From contig CAZMOK010000007.1 in NCBI GenBank assembly GCA_964567785.1, positions 4,254 to 68,253 on the forward strand: 64,000 nt of DNA, read 5' to 3'. Both the position numbers and the translations under genes were made by a program. The notes beneath the pieces were generated by a model. It made no database searches. It was not told the DNA's origin and was given only the letters and a program-made list of their open reading frames with translations. Source of the stretch: an uncultured Bacteroidales bacterium. GTDB lineage: Bacteria > Bacteroidota > Bacteroidia > Bacteroidales > JAGOPY01. Position 1 is the first letter of the stretch. Every line of letters begins with the position of its first letter. Below are positions 14,421 through 30,500 of this stretch, in pieces.

Positions 14421-17400
14421 ATGAAAAGAATCGCTACTGTACTAGGGTTGCTGACAGTCTTGACCTTTGCTTACCAGGCTTCAGCACAAGAAACTACCAA
14501 CCTCCGGGCACTTCAGGAATTTTCTAAAGAAAAAGAGGCAGAATATCAGAAGCAAAAGGCAGAGGCACTGGAATTTGCCAGTGAAAACGATATTCCGGTC
14601 AGTTTTCAAAATGAAGAAGGTACCTTCTTCGAACTCCAGTTCATTGATGATTTTGGCAGGCCGCAGTATTACATTACTCATAATGTGAACTCTGCTGCAA
14701 CCATTGCTACCAGCAATGTATTACCGGGTGGAAGTTCAGGGCTGAACCTCGACGGGTCAGGCATTACACCCAGGCAATGGGATGCAGGCGCAGCAAGGCC
14801 TACGCACCAGGAATTTGGCGGCAGGGTTACAATGGGTGATGGGGCTTCCACCAATCACTACCATTCAACTCACACTGCAGGTACCATAATGGCTTCAGGC
14901 GTTGATGCCAGTGCAAAAGGGATGGCCCCTGCTGCAGACCTGAGGGCATTCGACTGGAGCTATGATGAATCGGAGATGGCCTCAGAAGCCGCTGCAGGCG
15001 CACTGATGTCGAACCACTCATATGGCTATGGCCGCGGATGGGTATATTCGGGTGGCTGGCAGTGGTATGGCAATCCCTCTATCAGTGAGGATGAGGACTA
15101 CCTTTTTGGTTTTTATGAAAGCCAGGCCCAGAGCTGGGACCAGATAGCTGTTGATGCTCCTTTTTATCTCATAGTGAAATCTGCAGGAAATGACAGGGGC
15201 GACGGACCTACGGGGGGCCAGTACCCTCAGGACGGTCCTTATGACTGTATAAGCCATGCAGGTATTTCAAAGAATATTATGACTGTTGGAGCAGTTGAAG
15301 ATATCCCGGGCGGATATTCTGGTCCATCCAGCGTGGTCATGAGCTCATTCAGCTCCTGGGGCCCTGCTGATGATGGCAGGATAAAGCCTGATATAGTTGC
15401 CAACGGTGTTTCATTGTATTCTACAGATTCAGGTTCCGACGACGACTATGTTTCCCTCAGCGGAACTTCCATGGCGGCTCCTTCAGTTACCGGCTCCCTT
15501 GCCCTTCTTCAAGAGCACTGGGAAAATGAGAACGGATCAGGAAACTACATGAGGGCAGCAACCCTCAAGGGACTTGTGATTGCCACGGCTGATGAGGCAG
15601 GTGGATGGGACGGACCGGATTACGAATTTGGCTGGGGCTTGATGAACACAGAAAAAGCAGCCGAAAAGATCACTGAAGATCAGACTTTCAACGTGATCGA
15701 TGAGCTTACCCTGGCTGACGGTTCTGCCTATACAAGGACTATTACCTCTGATGGTACAGAACCCCTAAAAGTGACCATTTGCTGGACCGACCCCCCGGGA
15801 ACACCGGTAAGTGCACAGCTTGATCCAATTGACCCTATGCTTGTCAACGACCTTGACCTCAGACTTACATATGCCTCGAATACCTTCTATCCATGGAAGA
15901 TGGACAGGGACAACCCAACAGTGGCTGCTACCAACACAGGCGAAAACAATGTGGATAATGTTGAAGTCGTATATATTGACAGTCCTGTTGCAGGTGATTA
16001 CACAATTACCGTAGATCACGACGGAACGCTGACAGGGGGCACACAGGCCTTTTCTATAATAATAGACGGTGTTGTTGCATCAATACCGCCCGTTCCACCT
16101 GTTGCAGATTTCACCGCAGATGAAACCACACCCGAAACCATGGAGATAGTTCATTTTTACGACCTCTCAAATTACAATCCCGATACCTGGAACTGGTCGT
16201 TCAGTCCTTCAACCGTAACTTTCATAAACGGCACAAGCGCGTCATCACAAAACCCTGAAGTTACCTTCGACCAGCAGGGCACTTATGATGTGACGCTCAC
16301 CGTTACTAATCAATACGGCAGCGATACCGAAATCAAATATGGATACGTCGTAGTAACCGACCCGGTTCCGTTCAGCCTTCCCTGGATAGAAGACTTCGAA
16401 GGTGTTGGTCCTGTAACTACATTCACTGATAATACTTCCGAGATCAATGATCTTGAGTACTGGTCGTATGAGAAAACGGTCGATGGACGCCTTCGCTTTG
16501 ATGCCGGTTCGGGCTACTATTACAGCGGCAGCAATGCAGCTACACTTGATGCTCATCCGTCCGGGGCTTTTTCTGTAAACTACCTCATTGCATCAGTCAG
16601 TCTTTTCGACTATTCAACATGCGAGAATCTTGAACTCTCGTTTTACTATATGAACCATGGAGAGGAGTCAAGTCCAAATGACAGGGTCTGGATGAGAGGC
16701 AGCGATGCCGACCCCTGGATAGAGATATACGATCTTTATAATAACAGGGGCACCCCGGGTGTATGGAAGCATGTATCAGGTATAGATATTGATGCTATTC
16801 TTGCAACAAACGGACAAATCCCAACTCAGACTTTCCAGTTGCGTTTCGGTCAGGAAGATAACTACCCTTCAACCTCCACCACTGGCAGCGATGGTTTCAC
16901 CTTCGACGATGTAAAAATAGAAGAAATCGACCCGAGTCAATATATAATAAGTACCTTCCCATATTCACAAAGCTGGGAAGACGGCATGGGCCTCTGGTGC
17001 CAGGCAACCGACGATGATTTTGACTGGACGAGGAATACCGGGGGAACCCCCTCGATGGGTACTGGCCCTGTAGCAGCCCATGATGGTTCATACTATATGT
17101 TTACTGAAGCATCAAACCCCAGGGTTCTTGGAGATTTTACAAATATTTATGCCTCCTTTGATTTCACAGGCTTGACCAGTCCCTTACTTTCATTCTATTA
17201 TCATATGGCAGGAACTGATGTGGGATCACTACATGTGGATGTATACGATGGTTCAAGCTGGATAAACGATGTATGGAGTATCACCGGAATTCAGCAGGCT
17301 AACCAGACAGACCCATACCTTAACGCCACAGTCGACCTGTCTGCCTGGGAAGATATGAGTGATATCAAAATCCGTTTCAGGGGAATTGTCGGAAATGGAG

Positions 17401-18833
17401 GCGGAGATACATGGTCTAGCGATATTGCCATCGATCTCATAGAATTGACAGGCAATTCATCACCTCAGCCACCCTCCTGTACCAATCCTGTTGAACCGCT
17501 TGACGGAGCAACTGATGTATTAGTAACAACGGATATAACCTGGGATGCTGTTCCTGATGCCGACGGATACAAGATTTACATCGGATTCGACTCCCCGCCA
17601 ACAAATCTGGAGAACGGAACCGATCTGGGTGATGTCACAACATATACACCACCGGTTTCATTGGAACCCGGAACTATGTATTACTGGAAAATAATTCCGT
17701 ACAATGCAGAAGGGGATGCTACCGGTTGCGGCACCTGGTCATTCACTACTATGAATGTTCCTCCGGCAACCATACCCATACACCCCCCGCACGGGTCAAT
17801 AAATATTTCTGTAGACACAACTTTGTCATGGGTGCCGGTCCCGAATGCTACCGGGTATTTCCTCTATTTTGGAACCGACAACCCACCGTCGAATTTAGAA
17901 AACGGTACCGACCTGGGTAATGTTACTTCTTACTCTCCTACCGGAGGAATGCTTTATCAGACAGATCATTTCTGGAAAGTAGTCCCCTACAACGAAGGCG
18001 GGCCAGCAATTTCCTGTCCTAAGTGGGGATTCACCACAGAGGAGAACACAGCCCCATCTGTATATCCTTATGTTGAAAGCTTTGAAGAAGGGTTCGGGCT
18101 ATGGGTGCAATCTGTTAACGATAATTTCGACTGGACCAGGAACAGCGGTTACACTCCATCATGGAGGACCGGCCCGAACAGCGCGCACGACGGATATTAT
18201 TACATCTATACAGAAGCCTCAGGATTGTATTCAGGCGCTGAAGCACACCTGGAAGGGGAGTTTGACCTGAGTAACCTGGGCAGGCCAAAACTGTCACTGT
18301 ATTATCATATGTATGGAAGCACAATGGGTTCACTGCACATTGATATTTATGACGGTCAATGGCATAACAGTGTCTGGAGCATAAGCGGACAACAGCAAAG
18401 CTATTACAGCTCCTCTTATCAAAATATTGAACTCGACCTCATCAACTACAATACTGCAGCACCTGTAACAATAAGGATCAGGGGGGTAAGAGGCGGAGGC
18501 TACAGGTCAGACATCTCAATAGATATGGTTGAAATATATGATGGCTCCTCAGGGAACTCCGTGCCTTCCATAACTGCATCCACTCCGGAACCTGAGAAAC
18601 AACATAATGTTAAAATATGGTCGTACCATGATAAGGTGTATGTAAGTTCAGAGAATGAAGTGAGAGAAGGTGAAGTTCTGATCTATAATACAATGGGGCA
18701 GGTAATTGCTTATAAAGACCTTCAAAATAAAAGTCTCAATGTAATCCCATTGGTGACCGAACCGGGTTATTACATAGTGAAAGTAATTGTGAATGATAGG
18801 GTTTCGGTTGGGAAAGTTTTCTTATTCCGATAG
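14421..18833 (+). CDS. 1470-aa secreted S8 subtilisin-like peptidase with PKD, two MAM-like and two FN3-like modules and a T9SS C-terminal sorting domain
   Basis: Catalytic triad contexts QWDAGAA, HYHSTHTAGTI and SGTSMAAPSVTGS. PKD-like aa ~560-647. Duplicated D(D/N)FDWTRN(T/S)G...AHDG.YY.(F/Y)TEAS modules. Last ~75 aa resemble a Por/T9SS tail (...GYYIVKVIVNDRVSVGKVFLFR). Confidence 0.85.
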   Translation: MKRIATVLGLLTVLTFAYQASAQETTNLRALQEFSKEKEAEYQKQKAEALEFASENDIPVSFQNEEGTFFELQFIDDFGRPQYYITHNVNSAATIATSNVLPGGSSGLNLDGSGITPRQWDAGAARPTHQEFGGRVTMGDGASTNHYHSTHTAGTIMASGVDASAKGMAPAADLRAFDWSYDESEMASEAAAGALMSNHSYGYGRGWVYSGGWQWYGNPSISEDEDYLFGFYESQAQSWDQIAVDAPFYLIVKSAGNDRGDGPTGGQYPQDGPYDCISHAGISKNIMTVGAVEDIPGGYSGPSSVVMSSFSSWGPADDGRIKPDIVANGVSLYSTDSGSDDDYVSLSGTSMAAPSVTGSLALLQEHWENENGSGNYMRAATLKGLVIATADEAGGWDGPDYEFGWGLMNTEKAAEKITEDQTFNVIDELTLADGSAYTRTITSDGTEPLKVTICWTDPPGTPVSAQLDPIDPMLVNDLDLRLTYASNTFYPWKMDRDNPTVAATNTGENNVDNVEVVYIDSPVAGDYTITVDHDGTLTGGTQAFSIIIDGVVASIPPVPPVADFTADETTPETMEIVHFYDLSNYNPDTWNWSFSPSTVTFINGTSASSQNPEVTFDQQGTYDVTLTVTNQYGSDTEIKYGYVVVTDPVPFSLPWIEDFEGVGPVTTFTDNTSEINDLEYWSYEKTVDGRLRFDAGSGYYYSGSNAATLDAHPSGAFSVNYLIASVSLFDYSTCENLELSFYYMNHGEESSPNDRVWMRGSDADPWIEIYDLYNNRGTPGVWKHVSGIDIDAILATNGQIPTQTFQLRFGQEDNYPSTSTTGSDGFTFDDVKIEEIDPSQYIISTFPYSQSWEDGMGLWCQATDDDFDWTRNTGGTPSMGTGPVAAHDGSYYMFTEASNPRVLGDFTNIYASFDFTGLTSPLLSFYYHMAGTDVGSLHVDVYDGSSWINDVWSITGIQQANQTDPYLNATVDLSAWEDMSDIKIRFRGIVGNGGGDTWSSDIAIDLIELTGNSSPQPPSCTNPVEPLDGATDVLVTTDITWDAVPDADGYKIYIGFDSPPTNLENGTDLGDVTTYTPPVSLEPGTMYYWKIIPYNAEGDATGCGTWSFTTMNVPPATIPIHPPHGSINISVDTTLSWVPVPNATGYFLYFGTDNPPSNLENGTDLGNVTSYSPTGGMLYQTDHFWKVVPYNEGGPAISCPKWGFTTEENTAPSVYPYVESFEEGFGLWVQSVNDNFDWTRNSGYTPSWRTGPNSAHDGYYYIYTEASGLYSGAEAHLEGEFDLSNLGRPKLSLYYHMYGSTMGSLHIDIYDGQWHNSVWSISGQQQSYYSSSYQNIELDLINYNTAAPVTIRIRGVRGGGYRSDISIDMVEIYDGSSGNSVPSITASTPEPEKQHNVKIWSYHDKVYVSSENEVREGEVLIYNTMGQVIAYKDLQNKSLNVIPLVTEPGYYIVKVIVNDRVSVGKVFLFR

Positions 18834-18861
18834 AAGTAATAACCTGACAGGTATCTCACGC

Positions 18862-18895
18862 GGTCACGTTCGCCCTGAACGTGGCCGTTTTTTTT
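18862..18895 (+). terminator. Rho-independent terminator after the S8 peptidase gene
   Basis: GGTCACGTTC-gccct-GAACGTGGCC followed by a T9 run. Confidence 0.7.
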
Positions 18896-18930
18896 ATCCC
18901 CTTTTTATATGTTGTTGTAATTTTGCCACT

Positions 18931-19557
18931 GTGTCCCATAGCCATACAAATATTACGGCAATTATACTCTCAGGCGGTAAAAGCAGCAGGATGGGTAACG
19001 ATAAAGGCCTTGTGAAACTTAATGGCAAACCCCTGGTCAAATATGCCATAAGCACCCTTGAAAAACGCACTGCCAATATTGTTATCAGTTCAAACTCTGA
19101 GGAGTACCAGGAATTTGGCAAACCGGTAGTGAAAGATATCCACAATGGCATAGGCCCGATGGGGGGAATACATGCAGGCCTTCATTTCAGCAAAAGCAAA
19201 TTAAACCTGGTCCTTTCCTGCGATATGCCTTTCGTAACTCATCATCTTTACGATCTGTTATTGAGAAAAATGGAAAACTCGTTGGTTGCAGTCCCCTGGT
19301 ACCGTAACGACCACTTTGAACCAATGGCTGCCATCTATCATAAAGACATCCTTCCTTATTTGGAGGGGTATATCGGTAAAGGAAACTTCAAATTGCCCGA
19401 ACTCTTTAATGAAATCCCGGTTGAACGGATCAGGCTCCCTATCGACAAGGAATTTTTCCACCCGCATTACTTTTTCAATGTAAATACGGAAAGCGACCTA
19501 AAAGCAGCAGGAAAGATTTTGAATGAATTTCCGGGGAGAGAGCAGTGCTCAATTTAA
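18931..19557 (+). CDS. mobA: Molybdenum cofactor guanylyltransferase
   Basis: ITAIILSGGKSSRMGNDKGLVKLNGKPL and LSCDMPF motifs. Start placed at GTG 18931 because the longer ORF runs through the upstream terminator and overlaps the peptidase gene. Confidence 0.75.
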   Translation: MSHSHTNITAIILSGGKSSRMGNDKGLVKLNGKPLVKYAISTLEKRTANIVISSNSEEYQEFGKPVVKDIHNGIGPMGGIHAGLHFSKSKLNLVLSCDMPFVTHHLYDLLLRKMENSLVAVPWYRNDHFEPMAAIYHKDILPYLEGYIGKGNFKLPELFNEIPVERIRLPIDKEFFHPHYFFNVNTESDLKAAGKILNEFPGREQCSI

Positions 19558-19591
19558 AAAGGGAAAAACAATAAGGCTAAATGAAACTTCT

Positions 19592-20140
19592 ATGCTCAAA
19601 CTTCCAAACGCATTAATAATCGTAGGTACTAACCGGAATGCCGGCAAAACTACCCTGGCCTGTGATATCATCAGGAGGTTCTCATCTCCCGAAAAAATAA
19701 CCGGGATCAAGATCTCCCCGCATTTTCATGAATTGGACGATGATGCAATCATCGTTGAAAAGAATGAAGATTTTGTAATTGTTAAGGAATCAAAACAAGG
19801 CACTGTAAAAGACAGCTCGAGGATGCTGGATGCAGGGGCTCACGAAGTCTACTACATACAGGTATGGGACATGAACATAGAGAAGGCCTTCAGGACACTC
19901 ATAAAGCATATCGACAATTCATCACCGCTGGTATGCGAATCGGGATGGCTTAGAACGGTTGTTGAGCCGGGGCTTTTCCTGATCCTCAACAGAAAGGGTA
20001 ACACAGACATCAAGGAAAGTATTTCAGAATACAAAAAGCTTCCTCATCATTGGATTGAATTTGATGGGAAAGGTTCTGATAAAGGGCTGGAAAAAATAAC
20101 CCTTGAAAACAACAGTTGGAAAATCAAAGATCAATCCTGA
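19592..20140 (+). CDS. MobB-like P-loop protein (molybdopterin-guanine dinucleotide biosynthesis adapter-like)
   Basis: Walker A GTNRNAGKTT. GIKISPHFHE and KDSSRMLDAGA parallel E. coli MobB GLIKHTHHD and KDSYELRKAGA. Start set at ATG 19592. Confidence 0.55.
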   Translation: MLKLPNALIIVGTNRNAGKTTLACDIIRRFSSPEKITGIKISPHFHELDDDAIIVEKNEDFVIVKESKQGTVKDSSRMLDAGAHEVYYIQVWDMNIEKAFRTLIKHIDNSSPLVCESGWLRTVVEPGLFLILNRKGNTDIKESISEYKKLPHHWIEFDGKGSDKGLEKITLENNSWKIKDQS

Positions 20141-22866
20141 AAATACCATGCAGGCAGAATGCATGCAGATGATCTTTCTTCGAGTACGGAGCTGAAATCC
20201 CACAGCGATCGCTGCATTATCTCCGATTCTTCTTCGTGGCAGTGCAGGCAACTGCCTACGAGCAGGATTTTTCGCTGTTCTGCAACGTTGAACGGGCGGG
20301 CCCCCGGCCTGGTAGCAGCCTGATCGGTCCTCCCGGTCATGAAGGGTATCCAGGCATCTTCCGGCAAACCATCCTCTTTTCTCGGTGCATATTTATTCCC
20401 GAAACTGAAAACACCCTTACCCCCTTCAGTATTATAGACCAGTTCACCCCTGCCATAGCCAATTGCCAGGGGATCGAGGTGACATGATATGCAGCTCCTG
20501 GAGCCGGCTGAAGTTGTATGAGGGGATATCGGCGAATGGAGCCTTTTGAATATTTCCGGGGCTCCGGCTTGGCCGGGAAACCCGGATCTGTCTATTGTCA
20601 AGATCATTCCCGGTGTAAAAGTGCTTATTAACTTATTTTCTCCATCTTCGTCCAGCACACCGAGAACAGGTTCCCCGGCGAGGTATTTCCCGACAAATTC
20701 GATCCACTCGCCCTTTTTCTCCCTGTATTCCAACAGGTCGAAACCTGCGGCTTCCTTATCATATGCATTGTGGCATCCAATACATTGCGGTACCCACGAT
20801 GAGTGGCATGAATTGCAATCCAGGTTTCTGTGGGCTTCTGTTTTTCCGCACACATCGGCAGGAGGATATAAGGGATAGATAGTATCATTGTTCTTTCCCC
20901 TGAGAAAGTATTCACTTTCTTTTACCACCGTGTTAACCATAGCCAACCCTGATGTTCTGCTCCTGATAAATAACCCGCCGGGTTTGTTGAATCCCCTGAG
21001 TGCGGCAATCTTTGCCGCTTCATAGTCAAGATAACCGGTTGTTACCACTTCAGGATCTCCATAAAAATGGCAGTCCTCACACCCTACCTTCACCTGCTCT
21101 TCCTTATGGTGATAGAGGTTTCCATCACCCATTAAACCAAAGGATATATGACAATCTATACATGACATCCCGGATTGATGGTGAACATCGGGGGGCATAT
21201 CCACCATCACCCTGTAGTCGTCCAGGACCGTATAATCATGACCCGGTGGAAGTTTATCCGAGTCCATAAGAGATTCATGCAGTCCCATGTAGCTCAATGA
21301 GATCCTGCCCGACCTGCTGTGACAGCCAAAGCAGTGGTCGTCGCTGATGGCAACCGAAAGTGAAGGATGATGCCGGGGCGATTCCCCGGTTTTCAGCCAA
21401 TTCTCCCGTTCCGCAAGGGATTTGAGCGAATGCTCATCATAATTGAGGTGACAGGCATTGCAACCGCCACCTCTTGATAGCTGGCCAATGGGGCCGGGCT
21501 CTTCCTTGGGGTGGCCGAGATGGCAATGCGCACAAAGATCCCGCAGGTGCTCGTCAGCGGGAGTGTGCCCTATTTCCTCAATATGTGAAAGAACTGAAAG
21601 TGACTCAGATTCATCAAACACATACCGGTTTACACTTACCATCCCGCTAAGCGTTGTCATGATCGAATTATCCACCCTGGATGTTATTTCGGGATGGCAA
21701 CCGGCAGTACCACAACTTCTTCGGGCATCTGCAAGGTTACCCGGAACAATGAGCATATCTTTATGGGCCCTTTCCTTATGCATGGTAAAAGGATCACCCC
21801 CATGGCAACTTGCACACCCAATTGCAGAAGGATCGTGTGAAGTCGTAAGTCCTGTCATTCCTTCATGGCAAACCATACATCCCTCAAACCTTTCACCGGT
21901 CTTTTCTGTCAGTGAAATGCCGTCAGTATATTCCTCCGGAAAACTTGTATTGACGGGGTGATAAACAACTGAAAACAGATTACCGTTCTTCCCTGCCTGT
22001 AAAGACCAGGACCAGTCCTCACCCCGGAAAAAGGAACCGATAAGTGTCAGTACAAGGTAAGCAAGTCCGATAATAAGCAAAGAACGTTTGAGTATCTTGT
22101 TAGGCCCCTGCCTTAATACCCTCACAAGGTAAAAAAGACCGAAAAGCAGAATAAACACCCACCAGATCTGCAACGGATTGGCCATCCAGTGAAGGATCTC
22201 CTGCAAACCTGTAAAATACCATGGACCCTTGGTTGCGAGCTCATAGCCATCGTGCAGGGGCGCCCTGAAAAAGAAGGATATGATGATCAACAGGAAAAAA
22301 GCAATAAGAAACCTGAAAAGGTCGGGCCAGACCGATCTGACGTGTTCATAGGTGAAAGCAATAATTAAAATAGTTGCTGTGGCAATATGATGCACATAGA
22401 TCAACTGGAAATCATCTTCGGTACCCAGTAATGAATAATCCAGGTAATATCCTATAAAGGGAATGCCTGAGAGCAATCCGGAAAAGATCCTCCTTGCCTG
22501 AAGGGCATCTGCATCCCCTTTGAGTATAAAACCTGACAGCATGGCAAAGAAAACAATGGCAATGGTAAGGGTAAGCCTTAACCAGACTCCGCCGCTGACA
22601 TTTTCTTCGGTATTCTGAAAAAAATGATCAAAAATGTGGATTATGGTCAATATCAGAAAAGCCTGCGCACTCCAGAAGTGCAGGTTCCTGAAAAGGTTAC
22701 CGGCAGGATTTTCTATAACCATAAGGCTTAGTGAACCATACGGATCATCAACATCGTAGGGAATAGCCAGCAAAACACCTGATATTATACAAATGATCAG
22801 CGATGAGACTGCCATCCAACCATAAGTATCGAATTTTATGAGCTTTGCTATTCTTTTCAGCTTCAT
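20131..22866 (-). CDS. Fusion protein: cytochrome b6 + subunit-IV-like 7-TM domain with a C-terminal periplasmic domain carrying 12 c-haem motifs
   Basis: H63-x13-H77 and H160-x14-H175 lie in predicted helices B and D. GPWYF (PEWY-like) at aa 214-218. 11 CxxCH plus one Cx4CH (C385-GTAG-C390-H391) lie between aa 330 and 877. Confidence 0.8.
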   Translation of the reverse strand: MKLKRIAKLIKFDTYGWMAVSSLIICIISGVLLAIPYDVDDPYGSLSLMVIENPAGNLFRNLHFWSAQAFLILTIIHIFDHFFQNTEENVSGGVWLRLTLTIAIVFFAMLSGFILKGDADALQARRIFSGLLSGIPFIGYYLDYSLLGTEDDFQLIYVHHIATATILIIAFTYEHVRSVWPDLFRFLIAFFLLIIISFFFRAPLHDGYELATKGPWYFTGLQEILHWMANPLQIWWVFILLFGLFYLVRVLRQGPNKILKRSLLIIGLAYLVLTLIGSFFRGEDWSWSLQAGKNGNLFSVVYHPVNTSFPEEYTDGISLTEKTGERFEGCMVCHEGMTGLTTSHDPSAIGCASCHGGDPFTMHKERAHKDMLIVPGNLADARRSCGTAGCHPEITSRVDNSIMTTLSGMVSVNRYVFDESESLSVLSHIEEIGHTPADEHLRDLCAHCHLGHPKEEPGPIGQLSRGGGCNACHLNYDEHSLKSLAERENWLKTGESPRHHPSLSVAISDDHCFGCHSRSGRISLSYMGLHESLMDSDKLPPGHDYTVLDDYRVMVDMPPDVHHQSGMSCIDCHISFGLMGDGNLYHHKEEQVKVGCEDCHFYGDPEVVTTGYLDYEAAKIAALRGFNKPGGLFIRSRTSGLAMVNTVVKESEYFLRGKNNDTIYPLYPPADVCGKTEAHRNLDCNSCHSSWVPQCIGCHNAYDKEAAGFDLLEYREKKGEWIEFVGKYLAGEPVLGVLDEDGENKLISTFTPGMILTIDRSGFPGQAGAPEIFKRLHSPISPHTTSAGSRSCISCHLDPLAIGYGRGELVYNTEGGKGVFSFGNKYAPRKEDGLPEDAWIPFMTGRTDQAATRPGARPFNVAEQRKILLVGSCLHCHEEESEIMQRSLWDFSSVLEERSSACILPAWYFQD

Positions 22867-23270
22867 GAATAAAGCTTAACTATTATCTGGTTTCCACTTC
22901 GCGTGAATTCTAATTGTTTCAGGTTGTTTTCTGCCGGTCCTTTGAGCACATTGCCTGTTGAGGCCGAAAACCGTGAACCGTGGCAGGGACACACAAGAAT
23001 ATCATTGTGCTGTTTGGTGATCCTGCAACCTAAATGTGTACATGTTGTCGACAGGATCTCTATCTTATCCTCTTTCCTGACCGTTATTATTTTACCTGAG
23101 AGGCCTGTACCTTGTGGAATGGAATCTATGTTTATGCGCATGGTCAGATTTTCACGATGTGAAACGGTTTTACGGGCCATGAAAAACCAGGCGCCTGCTA
23201 AAGGGAGCATAAGCAAATAGCCCAGTGCCTTAATGAAATTTTTTCTCGATATTTCAGTTTTCCCTTTCAC
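22863..23270 (-). CDS. Rieske [2Fe-2S] protein, bc1/b6f type
   Basis: Boxes CTHLGC and CPCHGS. N-terminal SRKNFIK (RK variant of the Tat motif) plus a TM anchor. 4-nt ATGA overlap with the downstream cyt b fusion gene. Confidence 0.85.
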   Translation of the reverse strand: MKGKTEISRKNFIKALGYLLMLPLAGAWFFMARKTVSHRENLTMRINIDSIPQGTGLSGKIITVRKEDKIEILSTTCTHLGCRITKQHNDILVCPCHGSRFSASTGNVLKGPAENNLKQLEFTRSGNQIIVKLYS

Positions 23271-23670: not shown

Positions 23671-25905
23671 ATGGCTAACAGAAGGGATTTTATCAAAATA
23701 TCGGCTCTTGGCGTTGGAGGAGCGGCCCTTGCTACAACATCCATGAATTGGGTATTGGGCTCTTCCTCCGGTGAAGAGGTGGAGAGTTCATTGCCAAAGC
23801 TTACCAGGTATCCTACCTATTGTGAGGTCTGTTTCTGGAAATGTGCAGGGTGGACATATCTGGATGAACAGGGAAAAATAAAAAGCCTTTACGGAAATTA
23901 TGATGATCCCCATTGTAACGGGCGTTTATGTCCGAGGGGCACAGGTGGTGTTGGAATGTACCATGATAAAGACAGGCTGAAGAGACCTCTTATCAGGGTT
24001 AAAAAAGACGGAAAACAAACCTTCCGCGAAGCCTCCTGGGATGAAGCTCTCGGGCTGGTTGCCGAAAAGATGAAAGAGATAAAGGAAAAGTATGGTCCGG
24101 AATCAATGGCCGTATTCAACCATGGGTCATCAGGGCATTTTTTTGGCCACCTCCTGAAGGCCTATGGTTCTTCGAACATTACAGCCCCTTCTTATGCACA
24201 ATGCAGGGGGCCGAGGGAAGTTGGTTTTGCAACTACATTCGGGGCCGGTGTTGGTTCACCCGAACCAACAGATATAAGAGATACAAGGTGCCTTGTTCTT
24301 ATTGGCTCACACATAGGTGAGAACATGCATAACGGACAGGTCCAGGAAATGTCAGATGCAATTGACAAAGGCGCTGCCATCATAACAGTGGACCCCAGGT
24401 ATTCTACGGCTGCTTCAAAATCAAAATTCTGGCTTCCGATAAAGCCTGCCACCGATATGGCGCTCCTGCTGGCCTGGATACACGTTTTGCTTTATGAAGA
24501 ACTCTACGACAAAGAATACATAGAACAATATGGTTTTGGTCTTGATCAGCTCAGGAAGCACGTTGAGAACATGACCCCTGAATGGGCTTATGGCATTACT
24601 ACAATTAAACCAGAACTTATAAGAGAAAGTGCACGGGAAATGGCTGACGCCTCACCCTCGGTGATCATTCACCCGGGAAGGCATGTGACATGGTATGGTG
24701 ACGACACGCAGCGATCGAGAGCCATTGCAATCCTGAACGCCCTGCTTGGTTCCTGGGGACGCAGGGGTGGCTTTTATTTTAAGGAAGGTATAAGTGTACC
24801 GGAATATCCCCATCCCGAGTACCCTAAACCAGAATGGTCATGGAAAGAGGTGCTCAATGGTAAATATCCTCTCGCAGGGCTGTCGGTTTCCAATGCACTT
24901 GTTGAAGCATCCTGCCCACCGGAAACTGAGCACCGGATTCACGGGTGGATCGTAACAGGGACAAACCTGCCCATGACAATGCCGAACAAGGAATCGCTAA
25001 TGGAGGCCATTGATTCGCTCGACTTCCTGGCTGTTTGTGATACTATGCCGATGGAAATAGCCAGCTATGCAGATGTGGTCCTTCCCGAGTGCACCTATCT
25101 CGAAAGATACGACGAGTTGCGTAATTCCCCCCACAGGGAACCCTATCTTGCACTGAGGATGCCTGCCGCCGAACCAGCAGGCGACTCGAAACCGGCCTGG
25201 TGGATTGCCAAAAAAATAGGTGAAGAACTCGGACTGGACGATTACTTCAACTATGAAGATTATACTGAGGTTCTCGACTGGCAATTGAACAAGCTCGGCT
25301 CTTCACTTGAGGAAATGCAGAAAATTGGGATAAAGAAGTTCGATAGACAATCAGGTCCGCTTTATCTTGCTCCGGGCGAGAAGTACCGGTTCAACACGAA
25401 TACGGGTAAGATTGAATTGTATTCAACCGACCTGGCAAATCTTGGTTTTGACCCAATGCCTGTTTACACGCCACACCCTCAGCCACCTGCTGGTTTCTAT
25501 CGCCTGATTTATGGCAGGGCGCCTATGCATACTTTCAGTCGTACGGCCAATAACCCTAACCTGACAGACCTTATGGAAGAAAATTCGGTTTGGGTAAATC
25601 CACGGGTTGCCGACCTGTGGGGCCTGAGAAAAGACCAGTATGTGTGGCTCAAGAATCAGGACGGTAAGGTTTCATACTTTCCCGTTAAAGTGAGGGTGAC
25701 CGAACGTATAAGATGGGACTCTGTTTATATGGTCCATGGATTCGGTCATCGCATAAAGAAACTCAGCCGTGCTTATGGCAAGGGCACCAACGACTCCGAC
25801 CTTATAACAAATGTTATGACCGACCCGATAATGGGCGGAACGGGTATGAGAGGCAATTTCGTAACCTTTTTAACCGAAGAACCTGAAAAGGAGGATAGAT
25901 CATGA
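23671..25905 (+). CDS. Tat-exported molybdopterin (bis-MGD) oxidoreductase catalytic subunit, PsrA/PhsA-like
   Basis: Twin-arginine signal MANRRDFIKISALGVGGAALA. N-terminal FeS motif C-x2-C-x3-C...C (CEVCFWKC...GRLCPRG). 744 aa. Followed by FeS and NrfD subunits in the order A-B-C. Confidence 0.85.
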   Translation: MANRRDFIKISALGVGGAALATTSMNWVLGSSSGEEVESSLPKLTRYPTYCEVCFWKCAGWTYLDEQGKIKSLYGNYDDPHCNGRLCPRGTGGVGMYHDKDRLKRPLIRVKKDGKQTFREASWDEALGLVAEKMKEIKEKYGPESMAVFNHGSSGHFFGHLLKAYGSSNITAPSYAQCRGPREVGFATTFGAGVGSPEPTDIRDTRCLVLIGSHIGENMHNGQVQEMSDAIDKGAAIITVDPRYSTAASKSKFWLPIKPATDMALLLAWIHVLLYEELYDKEYIEQYGFGLDQLRKHVENMTPEWAYGITTIKPELIRESAREMADASPSVIIHPGRHVTWYGDDTQRSRAIAILNALLGSWGRRGGFYFKEGISVPEYPHPEYPKPEWSWKEVLNGKYPLAGLSVSNALVEASCPPETEHRIHGWIVTGTNLPMTMPNKESLMEAIDSLDFLAVCDTMPMEIASYADVVLPECTYLERYDELRNSPHREPYLALRMPAAEPAGDSKPAWWIAKKIGEELGLDDYFNYEDYTEVLDWQLNKLGSSLEEMQKIGIKKFDRQSGPLYLAPGEKYRFNTNTGKIELYSTDLANLGFDPMPVYTPHPQPPAGFYRLIYGRAPMHTFSRTANNPNLTDLMEENSVWVNPRVADLWGLRKDQYVWLKNQDGKVSYFPVKVRVTERIRWDSVYMVHGFGHRIKKLSRAYGKGTNDSDLITNVMTDPIMGGTGMRGNFVTFLTEEPEKEDRS

Positions 25906-26435
25906 GATACGCCATGGCAATAGACACTAAGAAGTGCGTCGGTTGCAGCGACTGTGTTGTTGCTTGCCAGACCGAGAACAATGTGCCCATTGGTTACTGC
26001 CGTGACTGGGTTACCGAAACCGTTGATGGCAGCTATCCGAACGTTGAAATAGAGCTTCGTTCAGAAAGATGCAATCACTGTGAAAATGCACCCTGCGTGA
26101 GATGCTGCCCTACGGGTGCCAGCCATATTGTAGACGGCGGAGTTGTACTTGTTACACCCAATGAATGTATTGGCTGCGGCGCCTGTATCCAATCATGCCC
26201 ATATGATTCAAGATACTCACACCCGGAAGGGTATGTAGACAAATGTACATTTTGTAACCACAGGATCACTAAGGGCCAGAAGCCGGCATGCGTAGAGGTA
26301 TGTCCGACTAAATGCATGTATTTCGGCGACCTTGACGATCCGAACAGCGAAGTGTCAAACATCTTGAAAAACAGGAAATATAAAGTGCTTGCCCCGGAAG
26401 CAGGCACCATACCCCATGTATATTTTTTAGTCTGA
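25902..26435 (+). CDS. 4Fe-4S ferredoxin-type electron-transfer subunit (PsrB/NrfC-like)
   Basis: Four Cys clusters (CVGCSDCVVAC, CNHCENAPC, CIGCGACIQSC, CTFC...C..C). 4-nt overlap with the catalytic subunit gene. Confidence 0.9.
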   Translation: MRYAMAIDTKKCVGCSDCVVACQTENNVPIGYCRDWVTETVDGSYPNVEIELRSERCNHCENAPCVRCCPTGASHIVDGGVVLVTPNECIGCGACIQSCPYDSRYSHPEGYVDKCTFCNHRITKGQKPACVEVCPTKCMYFGDLDDPNSEVSNILKNRKYKVLAPEAGTIPHVYFLV

Positions 26436-26448
26436 AAAAACTGATAAC

Positions 26449-27390
26449 ATGAGAGAAGAACTTTTTGTTAGCGGACGCGACATACCAAATATTGACCCCT
26501 ATCTCAATATCTGGCACTGGCAGATACCGATATACCTCTTCCTTGGAGGCCTTGCAGCCGGTATCCTTTTCTTCGCCGCATTATACACGATCCTCGGGAA
26601 GGAAAAGGAAATGGCTACCACAACAAAGTGGGCCCCTTTCATAGTTCCCGGTGCACTGGTAATAGGCTTGGTGATGCTCTTTCTCGACCTCAAGCACCAG
26701 TTATTCTTCTGGCAACTTTACACGACGATCAGGCTGGAATCACCAATGTCATGGGGAGCCTGGGTGCTGATGCTGATCACACCTTTGTCAATGCTCTGGG
26801 TAGCCAGCTATATCAAAGAGGTAATACCTAATTGGAAATGGAAGTTCAGATTTATGGATCTACTTGAGGCCTGGGTTATAAGAAACAGGAAAGGCCTTGC
26901 ATGGGTTATAATCGTTCTTGCAGTGATACTAGGCATTTACACCGGTATACTGCTCTCAGCCTTTAATGCCAGACCCCTCTGGAACACCTCCATACTTGGG
27001 CCACTGTTCCTTGTTTCAGGTATGTCAACAGGAGTGGCCACCATAATGTGGATGTCGAAAAACCACTACGAAAGAAAGGTAATGGGAAGGATAGACCTGA
27101 TCCTTATCACTGTTGAATTGTTCTTCATTACACATCTGATAATGGGTTTTCTGGCTTCCTCAAGTGTGCAGATTGCAGCCGCTGAGCTTTTCCTTGGCGG
27201 ACCCTTCACAGTATCATTCTGGGTGTTTGTGGTGATATTCGGCCTTGTGTTCCCGGCACTGCTGGAGGTTCTTGAGCTCGTGGGATACAGGATACCCGTT
27301 GCAATCCCTTCCCTTTTGATCCTTTTCGGAGGGTTGGTCTTTAGGTTCATAATGGTTGAAGCAGGGCAGATAACAAGATATTTATATTAA
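26449..27390 (+). CDS. NrfD/PsrC-type integral membrane quinol-interacting subunit
   Basis: 313 aa, about 8 TM helices. N-terminal W-x-W-x-I-P-x-Y-L-F-L-GG pattern typical of the NrfD family. Confidence 0.85.
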   Translation: MREELFVSGRDIPNIDPYLNIWHWQIPIYLFLGGLAAGILFFAALYTILGKEKEMATTTKWAPFIVPGALVIGLVMLFLDLKHQLFFWQLYTTIRLESPMSWGAWVLMLITPLSMLWVASYIKEVIPNWKWKFRFMDLLEAWVIRNRKGLAWVIIVLAVILGIYTGILLSAFNARPLWNTSILGPLFLVSGMSTGVATIMWMSKNHYERKVMGRIDLILITVELFFITHLIMGFLASSSVQIAAAELFLGGPFTVSFWVFVVIFGLVFPALLEVLELVGYRIPVAIPSLLILFGGLVFRFIMVEAGQITRYLY

Positions 27391-27404: not shown

Positions 27405-27932
27405 ATGATTGATAAAAAGAGAGATGGCACAAAGTACATCAACCCATACCTGGGCGGTTTTTTGCTCGGGCTGGTACTGCTTGCCACTTTTTACGTAACA
27501 GGACGCGGACTGGGTGCCAGCGGGGCTGCCAAGAGCACTGTTGTGGCAGCCGTTCAGTCAGTGGCCCCCAAACATGCAGAAAAGTCGGATTACTACAGCA
27601 TTTTCATCAGTGATGATTCACATCCGCTCAACACCTGGCTCGTGTTCGAGGTACTTGGTATCTTTGCCGGTGCTTTTCTTTCAGGCGCACTGGCAGGGAG
27701 GCTCAGGGTAAAAACTGAACACTCACCAAAGATCACTTCCCGCCAGAGACTGCTCTATGCCTTTATAGGTGGTTCGCTATTTGGCATCGGCTCGCAACTT
27801 GCCAGGGGATGTACCAGCGGCGCAGCGCTTTCCGGAATGGCCGTGCTTTCGCTCGGTGGCTTCATTACTATGCTCAGCATCTTTGGGAGTGCCTTTATTT
27901 TTGCGTGGTTACTCAGAAAAATCTGGATATAA
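27405..27932 (+). CDS. YeeE/YedE-family sulfur-compound transporter, half-size subunit 1
   Basis: Multi-TM with the conserved ARGCTSGAALSG motif. Confidence 0.8.
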   Translation: MIDKKRDGTKYINPYLGGFLLGLVLLATFYVTGRGLGASGAAKSTVVAAVQSVAPKHAEKSDYYSIFISDDSHPLNTWLVFEVLGIFAGAFLSGALAGRLRVKTEHSPKITSRQRLLYAFIGGSLFGIGSQLARGCTSGAALSGMAVLSLGGFITMLSIFGSAFIFAWLLRKIWI

Positions 27933-29164: not shown

Positions 29165-29166
29165 AT

Positions 29167-29813: not shown

Positions 29814-30500
29814 TTATCCGTTACGGCTGATATTGATCAGCCTTTCGTAATCCAGTATCCCGATGTCCTTCGCATCTATCCTGATCACACCAATATCAGA
29901 TAATTCTTTCAATGCACGCGTTACACTTTCCCTTGTAACGCCGATCCATGCAGCCAGGTCGTTGCGGGTCAGTATAAAATCGAATTCCTTTTTCCTGTGG
30001 ATCTCATCTGCAAAAAAGAGTATCGCATCTGCAAGGCGACCGTTAACTTGCTTTTGGGATAGGTTTACGAACCTCTCGAAATAAGAAAGCTCATCCTGAC
30101 ACAGGTATATGATTATTTCATAGGAAAATTCGGGGTTCCTCTTCAGTAATTGCCTGAAAGAGAAATTGTCAATGTAACAAACCCTCGAATCCATAAGTGC
30201 TGATGCTGAATACCGGTGTATCTTCTGCGACAGTATGGTTTGAAGTCCTATATATGAACCGGGAGCAATAATTTTCAAGATCTGGTCTTTTCCACTCGGA
30301 CCGGTCATGTGTATTTTTGCCAGTCCTGATTTGATATAGGCTATGTGCGACGACAACTTGCCCTGATGAATTATGCTATCTCCCTTTTTCAGGGTGACCT
30401 CAGCACAATTCTCATTCAAAAATTCCAGCTCTTTATTGCCAAGGGTTTCTACAGCCCTTGATTTTATAGAACAATTCTTACATTCCTGCTTTTTCACCAA
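29814..30500 (-). CDS. Crp/Fnr family transcriptional regulator (paralog 2)
   Basis: cNMP-binding-like barrel plus HTH LTRNDLAAWIGVTRESVTRALKELSDIG, with R-E-x3-R as in the E. coli CRP recognition helix. N-terminal Cys pair C7/C10. Confidence 0.85.
   Translation of the reverse strand: MVKKQECKNCSIKSRAVETLGNKELEFLNENCAEVTLKKGDSIIHQGKLSSHIAYIKSGLAKIHMTGPSGKDQILKIIAPGSYIGLQTILSQKIHRYSASALMDSRVCYIDNFSFRQLLKRNPEFSYEIIIYLCQDELSYFERFVNLSQKQVNGRLADAILFFADEIHRKKEFDFILTRNDLAAWIGVTRESVTRALKELSDIGVIRIDAKDIGILDYERLINISRNG

Follow-up and report, generated by a model that had tools for sequence, protein, structure and literature searches.

Among described systems, the closest relative of the locus analysed here is the Cbc6/ExtMNOPQ(S) gene set of Geobacter sulfurreducens (GSU2930-2935), which lies inside the extHIJKLMNOPQS cluster. 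There the gene for ExtM is directly downstream of that for ExtKL/MccSep, a polysulfide reductase required for S0 respiration, and is clustered with those for ExtH and ExtI. The physiological role of Cbc6 was stated as unknown in a 2026 review. A second point of reference is the GPWY clade of cytochrome b, described together with an Ignavibacterium album cytochrome b (YP_005846642) 'fused to a triheme cytochrome c7 domain' (Kao & Hunte, 2014; PMC4122944). Here we describe, in a 64-kb stretch of Bacteroidales DNA (the window), a gene pair that, judged by sequence comparison, corresponds to the Cbc6/ExtMNOPQ gene set in fused form.

Results

The operon consists of two genes on the minus strand and nothing else: one for a 135-aa Rieske [2Fe-2S] subunit, ExtO-like in size (22863..23270; Pfam and NCBIfam), and one for a 911-aa cytochrome b/haem fusion (20131-22866; ORF and translation). 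Both frames were recovered with translations that agree with the preliminary description, and the ATGA overlap between them can be read directly in the DNA (...tat tcA TGA ag ctg...). As that description held, there is no c1/f gene in the operon, and the fusion is the sole ORF of the window with at least two CxxCH motifs. Of 25 fused or split loci, 24 have a Rieske gene immediately upstream.

In one related locus (L019) cytochrome b and the haem cytochrome are encoded by separate adjacent ORFs, with the break at the linker (aa 289-322), as might be expected if the long frame were an assembly or frameshift artefact merging two genes. Such an artefact is nevertheless vanishingly improbable and was rejected, since the ORF recurs in three independent assemblies (GCA_054920555.1 and two Logan assemblies, with the same neighbours and an identical 911-aa protein) and since its full-length homologues, 873-968 aa long and 46-92% identical, number more than 120. 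The fused architecture is seen in 31 of the 150 best family clusters, each with its fused representative; overall, 1330 homologues were found at E <= 1e-5, and the ExtM domain family comprises 251 clusters at E <= 1e-30. The fusion is thus common, although none of these homologues is a characterised protein. Nor was the earlier view that a 12-haem fusion of this kind is unrecognised upheld, because ExtM is homologous to the haem domain over its full length, and ExtP and ExtQ match the membrane part.

The membrane domain (aa 1-288; 22003..22866, minus strand) resembles cytochrome b6 plus subunit IV and has seven predicted TM helices. It scores as a cytochrome b (Pfam Cytochrome_B, E 2e-12, above the gathering score), with NCBIfam matches to ExtP (E 2e-15) and ExtQ (E 0.013), the latter matched by 39 of 51 homologues with a best value of 1e-9, and a PDB profile match to cytochrome b6 (E 2.6e-14). 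Foldseek searches with the full-length AlphaFold2 model (pLDDT 83) returned cytochrome b chains of bc1 complexes only, at a probability of 1.0 over 320-390 aligned columns. The b-haem ligand pairs His63/His77 (x13) and His160/His175 (x14) are present as previously noted, and so is the Qo-site motif K213-G-P-W-Y-F218 (22213..22230, minus strand) in the E-F periplasmic loop, a GPWY variant of PEWY; all four histidines and K213-G-P-W-Y217 are invariant among the 51 homologues. The haem ci cysteine is absent, b6 Cys35 being aligned to T14. The positive-inside charge pattern, with five K/R at the N-terminus, five in the F-G loop and acidic outer loops, gives an N-in, C-out topology, which places the haem domain on the p-side, in the periplasm. 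TM helix G is joined to the first haem motif by a linker (aa 289-322; 21901..22002, minus strand) modelled with low confidence (pLDDT <50 at residues 289-300, averaging 66-67 over the 301-320 blocks).

The Rieske protein has an N-terminal membrane anchor preceded by a degenerate Tat motif, SRKNFIK, which aligns with RR, RK, RH or RN in 24 homologues. Its match to Pfam Rieske (E 9e-12) exceeds the gathering score, and it matches NCBIfam b6f/bc1 Rieske models at E 1e-13 to 1e-10. Both boxes, CTHLGC...CPCHGS, are present, the second reading CPCHGS-R-F. In the scheme quoted by Kao & Hunte (PMC4122944), an S-F signature after CPCH denotes a 'Mid+' cluster of about 260 mV, so that the earlier label 'high-potential' fits roughly.

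The remainder of the fusion (aa 323-911; 20131..21900, minus strand) is a periplasmic dodecahaem cytochrome c domain of the ExtM type, with NCBIfam ExtM matched at E 3e-72 over profile positions 15-591 of 599, as it is by all 51 homologues. The haem count proposed earlier holds, with eleven CxxCH motifs (C330, 351, 445, 469, 512, 569, 596, 684, 695, 792 and 873) and one Cx4CH, C385-GTAG-C390-H391 (21694..21714, minus strand), which is third in order and invariant in close homologues. All 36 motif residues are invariant in the 51 homologues, and in 101 family representatives each is conserved to 97% or more, a conservation far above chance. A free-standing Tamlana homologue has CGTCH at the third site, and 9 of 50 complete-motif representatives (from the first 60 inspected of the best 150) carry twelve plain CxxCH; the Cx4CH motif is therefore a true haem site into which two residues are inserted. 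Free-standing homologues are anchored by one TM helix at the N-terminus and are not flanked by a Rieske or cytochrome b gene; on this ground the functional core is the haem domain, to which Rieske/cytochrome b is an add-on for connection to quinol. The haem-domain model, which is confident (pLDDT 83, pTM 0.83) and includes a beta-rich subdomain (about aa 692-830), found no fold match in the PDB; a confident ExtM-type model lacking a solved-structure counterpart appears to be new. A match to Pfam PF14522 was also seen in the 911-aa protein, and such a match probably lies behind the 'c7' label of the I. album fusion, which we infer to be orthologous.

The agreement of Pfam, NCBIfam, PDB and Foldseek searches, together with the invariant histidines, GPWY and twelve motifs, supports the identity of the chain as an ExtP-like four-helix b, ExtQ-like three-helix subunit IV and ExtM-like 12-haem c joined in 911 aa. 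The central proposal of the preliminary description, that b6 and subunit IV share one chain whose periplasmic domain, with 12 c-haem motifs, replaces c1/f, is likewise supported.

Divergently transcribed from the gene pair is a psrABC-like operon (23671..27390, plus strand; Pfam, NCBIfam and PDB search) encoding a Tat-exported, PsrA-like Mo-bisPGD subunit (23671-25905), a 4x[4Fe-4S] subunit (25902-26435; Pfam Fer4_11) and an NrfD-type membrane subunit (26449-27390; Pfam NrfD). Along its entire length the Mo subunit matches the polysulfide reductase of Thermus thermophilus (2VPW; E 4e-191), and its best named NCBIfam match is PhsA (E 3e-141). On the same strand follow a split YeeE/YedE-type sulfur-compound transporter (27405-27932 and 27948-28538; Pfam Sulf_transp, NCBIfam TsuA/YedE) and two membrane-anchored rhodanese-homology proteins (28541-29164 and 29158-29811), genes that show synteny with psrABC in the majority of related loci. 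The cluster is closed on the psr side by an ORF for a putative Crp/Fnr-like regulator (29814..30500, minus strand; labelled from its translation), with a homologue in 10 related loci. Convergent with the fusion gene are plus-strand genes for MobA (18793-19557; NCBIfam MobA, E 9e-39) and a P-loop MobB-like protein (19523-20140; Walker A GTNRNAGKTT in the translation), the putative makers of the bis-MGD cofactor for PsrA; both are kept downstream of the fusion gene in loci L001, L003-L007 and L021. Further off on the plus strand are a rhodanese (7678-8652; Pfam Rhodanese), an ExtI-like OprO/P-type porin (8768-9859; NCBIfam ExtI, E 1e-14; Pfam Porin_O_P) and an ExtH-like tandem rhodanese (9910-10761; NCBIfam ExtH, E 8e-15), the ExtI and ExtH matches both lying under the curated cut-offs. 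This trio, or the rhodanese and porin, recurs within 10 kb in L003, L007, L013, L021, L029, L031 and L033.

In 34 of 45 loci PsrABC, the split YeeE and rhodaneses adjoin the ExtM-type gene, fused or free-standing, and in some of them lie on the same strand. These loci span Bacteroidota, Ignavibacteria, Verrucomicrobiota, Planctomycetota and Rhodothermales, and the association of an ExtM-type domain with Thermus-type PsrABC, split YeeE and rhodaneses appears to be new. No Psr genes were found in the full 10-kb flanks of L019 and L022.

This neighbourhood bears on the earlier idea that the complex wires quinol to an extracellular acceptor, for instance a metal or an electrode. A chain of twelve haems with a tether in the inner membrane could span part of the periplasm, and the Geobacter Ext proteins were first discussed for extracellular electron transfer. 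However, the window holds neither a second multihaem ORF nor outer-membrane porin-cytochrome genes, the nearby porin is of the OprO/P substrate-channel type related to ExtI, and the conserved neighbours are sulfur enzymes, all of which makes such a wire very unlikely. In Geobacter, ExtI is dispensable for Fe(III) citrate reduction, and extHIJKL for the reduction of Fe(III) oxide or low-potential electrodes (earlier work cited in the ExtI study).

Discussion

The reading that we favour, at about an even chance, is a menaquinol-oxidising GPWY-clade Rieske/cytochrome b complex that feeds sulfur or chalcogen reduction. Menaquinol would be oxidised at a Qo site to which the Rieske cluster and the GPWY loop both contribute. 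In a Q cycle, one electron would return to the quinone pool by way of haems bL and bH, and the other would pass from the Rieske cluster to the tethered 12-haem chain, the substitute for cytochrome c1/f. The chain would serve to reduce oxidised species of sulfur or chalcogens in the periplasm, with polysulfide, thiosulfate and tetrathionate as candidate acceptors and selenite and tellurite as possible side substrates. Its partners would be the adjacent PsrABC, the rhodaneses, the YeeE transporter and the ExtI-like porin, and the final electron step might be to PsrAB or to a catalytic haem inside the ExtM domain. Strict anaerobes such as Bacteroidales are probably without a general quinol:cytochrome c oxidoreductase, so by fusion the ExtM module may bring its own.

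A role in sulfur metabolism is favoured by the nearby PsrABC, YeeE, rhodaneses, ExtI-like porin and ExtH-like rhodanese, and by the occurrence of ExtM-type cytochromes beside two unrelated kinds of polysulfide reductase, PsrABC and ExtKL/MccSep. Against sulfur reduction we count the Psr-less loci L019 and L022. Moreover, PsrABC has an NrfD-type quinol site of its own, so that a second quinol oxidase is not obviously needed, and a Rieske potential of about +260 mV against about -260 mV for polysulfide/sulfide makes direct delivery to polysulfide thermodynamically unattractive. This gap would call for either a higher-potential acceptor or operation in reverse.

In reverse operation, the 12-haem domain would gather electrons from the oxidation of reduced sulfur, either thiosulfate to tetrathionate or sulfide/polysulfide through the Psr-like enzyme running backwards, and pass them through the Rieske cluster to menaquinone at the Qo site, aided by the proton-motive force. 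Kao & Hunte (2014; PMC4122944) class the GPWY Rieske as Mid+ to high-potential and group it with the APWY-type complexes, in their view a separate system, proposing reverse operation for the APWY type; oxidation of sulfur with electrons flowing to an oxidase would also fit the aerobic Flavobacteriaceae that carry free-standing homologues. The fused form, however, belongs to anaerobic lineages (Bacteroidales, Ignavibacteria, Calditrichia), for which uphill menaquinone reduction gains nothing obvious, sulfide-like donors could reduce menaquinone through PsrC with no need of Rieske/cytochrome b, and the homologous Geobacter cluster is tied to S0, selenite and tellurite reduction. We therefore consider reverse operation doubtful.

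Alternatively, the ExtM-type domain might itself be the terminal enzyme, a tetrathionate, sulfite, polysulfide or selenite reductase with a His/Cys-ligated or open-coordination haem, PsrABC acting separately on a product or precursor such as thiosulfate. A substrate of higher potential, such as tetrathionate or selenite, would suit a Mid+ Rieske, and the locus looks thiosulfate-centred, with its PhsA-best Mo subunit, TsuA/YeeE and rhodanese genes. Conserved across the family are eight His that could act as distal ligands, two to three Met and a Cys outside the haem motifs (C902, 88%; C673 reaches 61%); between them these would furnish twelve distal ligands, and sulfur-converting cytochromes, MccSep included, typically have His/Cys haems. 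At twelve haems over some 590 aa, which include a beta-rich subdomain, the haem density is also below that of pure wires. Yet the domain shows no kinship in fold or sequence to NrfA, HAO, OTR or MccA, apart from a single local motif of di-haem packing (E 7e-4 to 2e-3 in the profile search), and a terminal enzyme seems to us an unlikely identity.

On the favoured reading of menaquinol oxidation coupled to sulfur or chalcogen reduction, the module is no one-off oddity; it would be a widespread candidate sulfur-respiration system in which a 12-haem domain replaces c1/f.

Comparison with known systems

Alternative Complex III and Qrc are NrfD-family complexes with a membrane-anchored multihaem subunit. 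Their parts list is matched by the genes for the free-standing ExtM-type protein, with its single TM anchor, and the PsrABC next to it, namely multihaem c, Mo-type, FeS and NrfD subunits. Homology of the multihaem protein to ActA or QrcA was not found in any search, save for a weak QrcA match in one of 51 homologues, and unlike its counterparts the Bacteroidales PsrA looks catalytically competent, with its full-length Thermus match, Tat signal and adjacent MobA. The anammox Kuenenia complexes (Kustd1480-85, Kuste4569-74) also combine Rieske, b6-like b and subunit IV, with hexa- or octahaem cytochromes c standing in for cytochrome f, a likeness of parts. There, however, the multihaem proteins are separate, NAD(P) oxidoreductase-like subunits are present and one complex includes an HAO-like enzyme.

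With the b6f complex and the Bacillus-type menaquinol:cytochrome c reductase the Bacteroidales complex shares a four-helix b with x13/x14 His spacing and a three-helix subunit-IV part bearing the Qo motif, and its best PDB sequence matches are cytochromes b6. It differs in the fusion of b6 and subunit IV, in T14 at the place of the haem ci cysteine, in GPWY instead of PEWY/PDWY, and in being without cytochrome f or a monohaem c. The GPWY clade has the same Qo motif and a Rieske predicted to be of Mid+ to high potential, occurs in Ignavibacteria and Deltaproteobacteria, and has a C-terminal c-haem fusion already on record. Kao & Hunte (2014) recognised three haems there, not twelve; their study connected the clade with neither ExtM nor Psr, and Bacteroidota were not among the groups covered.

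Compared with Cbc6, the Bacteroidales chains score far under the NCBIfam equivalog cut-offs (244 vs 800; 57 vs 290), and ExtN (10 haems), ExtS and ExtKL/MccSep are absent from the 64-kb window. The parts in common are a small Rieske (ExtO, 14 kDa), cytochrome b (ExtP), the subunit-IV-like ExtQ and the 12-haem ExtM, in a neighbourhood with a rhodanese (ExtH), an OprO/P-type porin (ExtI) and a polysulfide reductase. In the Bacteroidales locus P, Q and M are one polypeptide, in the order Rieske then b/IV/M, and the partner is the molybdoenzyme PsrABC, whereas in Geobacter it is the haem/selenocysteine protein MccSep.

Two overlapping genes and their conservation

The Rieske protein and the fused cytochrome are encoded by two overlapping reverse-strand genes, one of 135 aa at 22863–23270 (−) and one of 911 aa at 20131–22866 (−); the two overlap by 4 nt in an ATGA that contains both the stop codon of the shorter gene and the start codon of the longer. 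The larger product has histidines at positions 63/77 and 160/175, the sequence KGPWYF at 213–218 and, within residues 330–877, eleven CxxCH motifs together with one Cx4CH motif (C-GTAG-CH). ORF calls and translations reproduce the coordinates, overlap, motifs and histidine spacing of the preliminary description, and its basic reading, a Rieske protein with cytochrome b6/subunit IV and twelve c-haem motifs, proved right by Pfam, NCBIfam, Foldseek and conservation. The possibility that the long ORF is an assembly or frameshift artefact joining two genes can be rejected, its probability being negligible: a 911-aa protein of identical sequence, flanked by the same genes, is found in GCA_054920555.1 (NCBI) and in two independent Logan assemblies, and full-length homologues are numerous. 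A search of 5.8 billion proteins with the fusion protein gave 1330 matches at E ≤ 1e-5, the best 120 of which are all 873–968 aa long with a query coverage of 96–100%. Among these 120 most are unnamed, the source names are mostly ‘hypothetical protein’ with a few of cytochrome b type, and the named NCBI entries are Bacteroidales or Bacteroidota MAGs.

In an alignment of the window protein with 50 full-length homologues (47–92% identity), all cysteines and histidines of the twelve motifs are invariant, as are the four b-haem histidines and the sequence K-G-P-W-Y. Each c-haem motif is at least 97% conserved across 101 representatives of the wider haem-domain family. Chance cannot therefore account for the motifs. 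When the operon and the divergent region of 400 bp were scanned for promoters and terminators, the results were no better than those for shuffled sequence.

The Rieske/cytochrome b core

The membrane domain (residues 1–288) matches Pfam Cytochrome_B above the gathering score (E 2e-12), so that the N-terminus does score as a cytochrome b, and cytochromes b6 are its best sequence matches in the PDB, at E 4e-7 when it is searched as a single sequence and 2.6e-14 as a profile. A full-length AlphaFold2 model (pLDDT 83, pTM 0.71) has seven transmembrane helices and the cd and ef surface helices. The top 50 Foldseek matches are all cytochrome b subunits of bc1 complexes (prob 1.0), aligned over 320–390 columns and thus including the C-terminal helices equivalent to subunit IV. 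Loop charges, with five lysines or arginines at the N-terminus, five in the F–G loop and acidic outer loops, fit an N-in, C-out topology, which places the haem domain in the periplasm, the site of c-haem attachment; model and charges both support the earlier prediction of seven helices and a periplasmic C-terminus.

The histidine pairs H63/H77 and H160/H175, with the b6-type spacings x13 and x14, correspond to the two pairs which in bc1 and b6f complexes sit on helices B and D and bind haems bL and bH. G214-P-W-Y217 sits in the E–F loop on the periplasmic side, the position of a p-side Qo motif, and GPWY is a recognised natural variant of the PxWY-type motif (Kao & Hunte, 2014; PMC4122944). 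The Rieske protein has the bc-type boxes CTHLGC and CPCHGS, disulfide cysteines included, and is encoded in the same operon. Among 25 related loci, fused or split, 24 have a Rieske gene immediately before the fusion or cytochrome b gene, and the remaining locus is truncated by the end of its contig. The anchor motif is S-R-K-N-F-I-K in the window protein, against a Tat consensus of S/T-R-R-x-F-L-K, and homologues have RR, RK, RH or RN at this position followed by x-F-[FL]-[KR]. From its signature CPCH-G-S-R-F (‘S-F’) the protein is predicted to be Mid+, at about 260 mV, and the Rieske partners of GPWY cytochromes have been predicted to be of ‘Mid+ to high potential’ (Kao & Hunte, 2014; PMC4122944). 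Whereas cytochrome b6f sensu stricto has a haem ci cysteine and separate b6 and subunit IV proteins, the window protein is a single fused chain, and the cysteine (CxGG, helix A) was absent when looked for: b6 Cys35 aligns to T14, at a position where the homologue consensus is D-T-x-G.

The ExtM-type haem domain

Residues 323–892 match NCBIfam NF040943, ExtM, at 243.7 bits (E 3e-72, profile positions 15–591 of 599), with twelve c-haem motifs, eleven CxxCH and one Cx4CH, as in the 12-haem ExtM. ExtP is the best-scoring cytochrome b model for the membrane domain (residues 15–176, 56.9 bits) and ExtQ matches weakly at residues 186–287 (E 0.013). ExtM and ExtP are matched by each of the 51 aligned homologues (best E for ExtM 5e-81), ExtQ by 39 of them (best 1e-9). 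The window scores lie well below the equivalog cut-offs of 800 bits for ExtM, 290 for ExtP and 150 for ExtQ, which argues that the window proteins are homologues, not orthologue-grade members, of these families. The Cx4CH site is judged to be a real haem site because CGTCH takes its place in free-standing relatives. No tryptophan-rich motifs of CcsA or Ccm were found within the window.

A confident model of the isolated haem domain (pLDDT 83, pTM 0.83) has a beta-rich subdomain and finds no meaningful match in the PDB with Foldseek (best E 0.28, TM ≤ 0.07), a null that amounts to absence of evidence given the weakness of Foldseek on helix-poor haem proteins. A profile search gave only a local match of ~80 residues to the NrfA di-haem region (E 7e-4 to 2e-3). 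On these two results the domain is not assignable to NrfA, HAO, OTR or MccA. Since no relative of the ExtM fold has been solved, determining its structure would bring a new multihaem architecture to light. Candidate distal ligands are histidines 344, 368, 440, 500, 562, 587, 679 and 783 (family conservation 0.70–1.00), methionines 403 and 579 (about 1.0) and 754 (0.78), and the non-motif cysteine 902 (0.88), which together would supply twelve distal ligands. Cys902 could give a His/Cys haem, as seen in sulfur-converting cytochromes.

Distribution of fused, split and free-standing forms

Counted in one genome per GTDB species, relatives occupy 45 loci. Twenty-four of the 45 are fused, and the survey finds this form in Bacteroidales, Sphingobacteriales, Ignavibacteria, Melioribacteraceae, Acidobacteriota and an unclassified bacterium. 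One locus in a Calditrichaceae MAG (L019, 9538–12757) is split: adjacent genes encode a Rieske protein of 137 aa, a 301-aa cytochrome b with subunit IV and a 629-aa 12-haem cytochrome; with the three genes in the same order as in the fusion, it is an unfused intermediate. The haem cytochrome alone is present at 20 of the 45 loci, where tblastn finds no Rieske or cytochrome b gene. Its hosts are cultured Flavobacteriaceae such as Tamlana, Mangrovimonas, Formosa and Robertkochia, as well as Saprospiraceae, Verrucomicrobiota, Planctomycetota, Rhodothermales and an Ignavibacteriales MAG (L038). This free-standing form has 610–680 aa and one N-terminal transmembrane anchor and is usually monocistronic; its existence shows that no dedicated Rieske/cytochrome b is required for the haem domain to work. 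When the haem domain was searched against 1.84 billion cluster representatives, 251 clusters matched at E ≤ 1e-30, and among the best 150 of these 31 are fused and 69 free-standing. On a neighbour-joining tree built from the haem domain, fused forms are confined to one half, where unfused ones are mixed in with them (19 changes by parsimony), but the tree is crude and some ‘unfused’ entries are N-terminal fragments, so we make no claim for the number of fusion events.

In Tamlana fucoidanivorans CW2-9 (CP074074; L043, 9839–16927) a 634-aa free-standing ExtM-type cytochrome starts a same-strand array which, as read from the translation, continues with a putative NapA, a small multihaem cytochrome and the start of a putative Alternative Complex III (actA, actB). 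A linkage of the free-standing form to NapA and Alternative Complex III was considered and dropped, since tblastn finds the adjacency at this locus alone.

Linkage to sulfur genes

The strongest new result is the synteny with psrABC, YeeE and rhodanese genes. At 34 of the 45 loci the ExtM-type gene adjoins psrABC, a split YeeE/YedE transporter and two rhodanese-homology genes, an adjacency that holds for fused and unfused ExtM-type genes and is on the same strand in several phyla. Nine of the 11 loci without the Psr arrangement are short or edge-limited, and two (L019 and a second such locus, L022) have full 10-kb flanks. In the window psrABC is a divergent operon (23671–27390 (+)), whose catalytic subunit matches Thermus thermophilus polysulfide reductase 2VPW over its full length (E 4e-191, residues 3–733) and starts with the Tat signal MANRRDFIK. 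With its Fer4_11 (FeS) and NrfD subunits, the operon has the predicted make-up of a Psr/Phs-type molybdoenzyme. Genes for MobA and a MobB-like protein, needed for the Psr cofactor, are convergent with the fusion gene, and 10 kb away lies a trio of rhodanese, ExtI-like porin and ExtH-like rhodanese genes that recurs in seven related loci. ExtN, ExtS, ExtKL/MccSep, porin-cytochromes and other multihaem genes were not found within the window, and we consider it very improbable that the complex serves extracellular electron transfer.

Several of the neighbouring genes have features of their own. The 205-aa ORF at 19523–20140 (+), which overlaps the 3′ end of the convergent fusion gene by 10 nt, has a Walker A motif (GTNRNAGKTT) and no Pfam or NCBIfam match; it also overlaps MobA, the pair is kept downstream of the fusion gene in seven loci, and it is probably a divergent MobB-like protein. 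The YeeE/YedE (TsuA-like) transporter is split over 27405–27932 (+) and 27948–28538 (+) in swapped order, the first gene encoding the C-terminal and the second the N-terminal half of Pfam Sulf_transp, and the pair adjoins psrABC in most related loci. Downstream of psrABC-yeeE, tandem genes at 28541–29164 (+) and 29158–29811 (+) encode membrane-anchored rhodanese-homology proteins with a shared tail, RKKKKTVVEGGC-COOH, consisting of a lysine-rich stretch and a terminal E-G-G-C. It recurs in 15 related loci of Bacteroidales and Flavobacteriaceae (L003, L005–L007, L021, L025, L026, L029, L031–L033, L041 and L043–L045), in 14 of them on both genes. By eye, neither window protein has a cysteine-containing active-site loop; besides the terminal cysteine, the first is without cysteine and the second has none at all. 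The terminal cysteine may act as a persulfide-carrying swinging arm. Between the sulfur gene clusters, 14421–18833 (+) encodes a secreted protease of the subtilisin type (S8), 1470 aa long and containing PKD and MAM domains, which appears unrelated to the Rieske/cytochrome b finding.

Possible mechanisms

We have shown a Rieske/cytochrome b core in which all predicted cofactor ligands and a p-side Qo-type motif are in place, with a tethered periplasmic 12-haem domain occupying the position of cytochrome c1/f. The lineages in which the fused form occurs are anaerobic. Such lineages often do without Alternative Complex III, bc1 and soluble cytochromes c, so that the module may supply the connection to the quinone pool itself. 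Working forwards, the complex would oxidise menaquinol at Qo, passing the first electron to the b-haem path of a Q cycle and the second by way of the Rieske cluster to the tethered haem chain, which would supply reactions of sulfur or chalcogen species in which PsrABC, the rhodaneses, YeeE and the porin also take part. We give this forward model about an even chance. Its main difficulty is the potential of polysulfide reduction, about −260 mV, for which a Mid+ Rieske protein makes no sensible electron source; PsrC, moreover, already offers a quinol site. A higher-potential acceptor such as tetrathionate or selenite is therefore possible, which might be reduced at the haem domain while Psr/Phs would handle thiosulfate or polysulfide. 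That the haem domain is itself the terminal enzyme, a reading that overlaps the forward model, seems to us rather unlikely. Reverse operation has been proposed for the related APWY type (Kao & Hunte, 2014; PMC4122944), and we likewise think it doubtful that the present complex runs in that direction.

A broader view, which we offer tentatively and hold to be improbable as a whole, is that ExtM-type dodecahaem cytochromes form a hitherto unrecognised, structurally new, sulfur/chalcogen-converting class with a His/Cys haem (Cys902), partnered by the molybdoenzyme Psr or by MccSep and coupled to a proton-motive Q cycle where fused; such proteins would perhaps be tetrathionate, polysulfide or selenite reductases. 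If this were true, current genome-based metabolic models would be missing an energy-conserving sulfur respiration in Bacteroidota and Ignavibacteria.

Bacteroidota, and Bacteroidales in particular, are usually modelled without Rieske/cytochrome b complexes. The present data suggest that a dedicated, predicted complex-III-like quinol oxidase, wired to twelve c-haems, is encoded by many anaerobic Bacteroidales, Ignavibacteria and relatives, on chromosomes where genes for polysulfide/thiosulfate reductase are linked to it. Should this link be functional, inferences from sediment and gut-like metagenomes about sulfur respiration and the energy it yields would change, and the orphan Cbc6/ExtM of Geobacter would gain a testable role beside the newly characterised MccSep.

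Relationship to known systems

In the extHIJKLMNOPQS cluster of G. sulfurreducens, ExtM is a 12-haem cytochrome, ExtO a Rieske protein, ExtP a cytochrome b and ExtQ a membrane protein; the set is also named Cbc6/CbcMNOPQR, and according to a 2026 review the physiological roles of the predicted Cbc complexes, Cbc6 among them, ‘remain unknown’. Immediately upstream of the ExtM gene is ExtKL/MccSep, whose product has recently been identified as a periplasmic polysulfide reductase required for S0 respiration, and ExtH and ExtI belong to the same cluster. Taken with the PsrABC synteny, this means that ExtM-type cytochromes accompany two unrelated kinds of polysulfide reductase. The ‘GPWY clade’ of cytochrome b was described from Deltaproteobacteria, Ignavibacteria and Nitrospinae, and an Ignavibacterium album protein (YP_005846642) was reported as a cytochrome b ‘fused to a triheme cytochrome c7 domain’ (Kao & Hunte, 2014; PMC4122944); the I. 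album genome paper lists Alternative Complex III only and no Rieske/cytochrome b complex. Because the window protein gives the same weak Pfam c7 match, the I. album protein is very probably a member of the ExtM-type fusion family with its haem count underestimated. A full-text literature search found no description of a Rieske/cytochrome b-multihaem fusion from Bacteroidetes; searches on ExtM/GSU2935 and on Melioribacter brought nothing further.

The fusion is common in metagenomes and not unique; judged by its homologies, it represents the Geobacter Cbc6/ExtMNOPQ theme in fused form, inside an already named cytochrome b clade. The finding is an incremental variant of a known theme rather than a new kind of system, and its value lies in the conserved link to Psr-type sulfur respiration and in the structurally unplaced ExtM fold. 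In Geobacter Cbc6, ExtO, ExtP, ExtQ and ExtM are separate proteins, whereas the window encodes an ExtO-like protein and an ExtP-ExtQ-ExtM fusion; in the Rieske/cytochrome b complexes of anammox bacteria, too, multihaem cytochromes replace cytochrome f.
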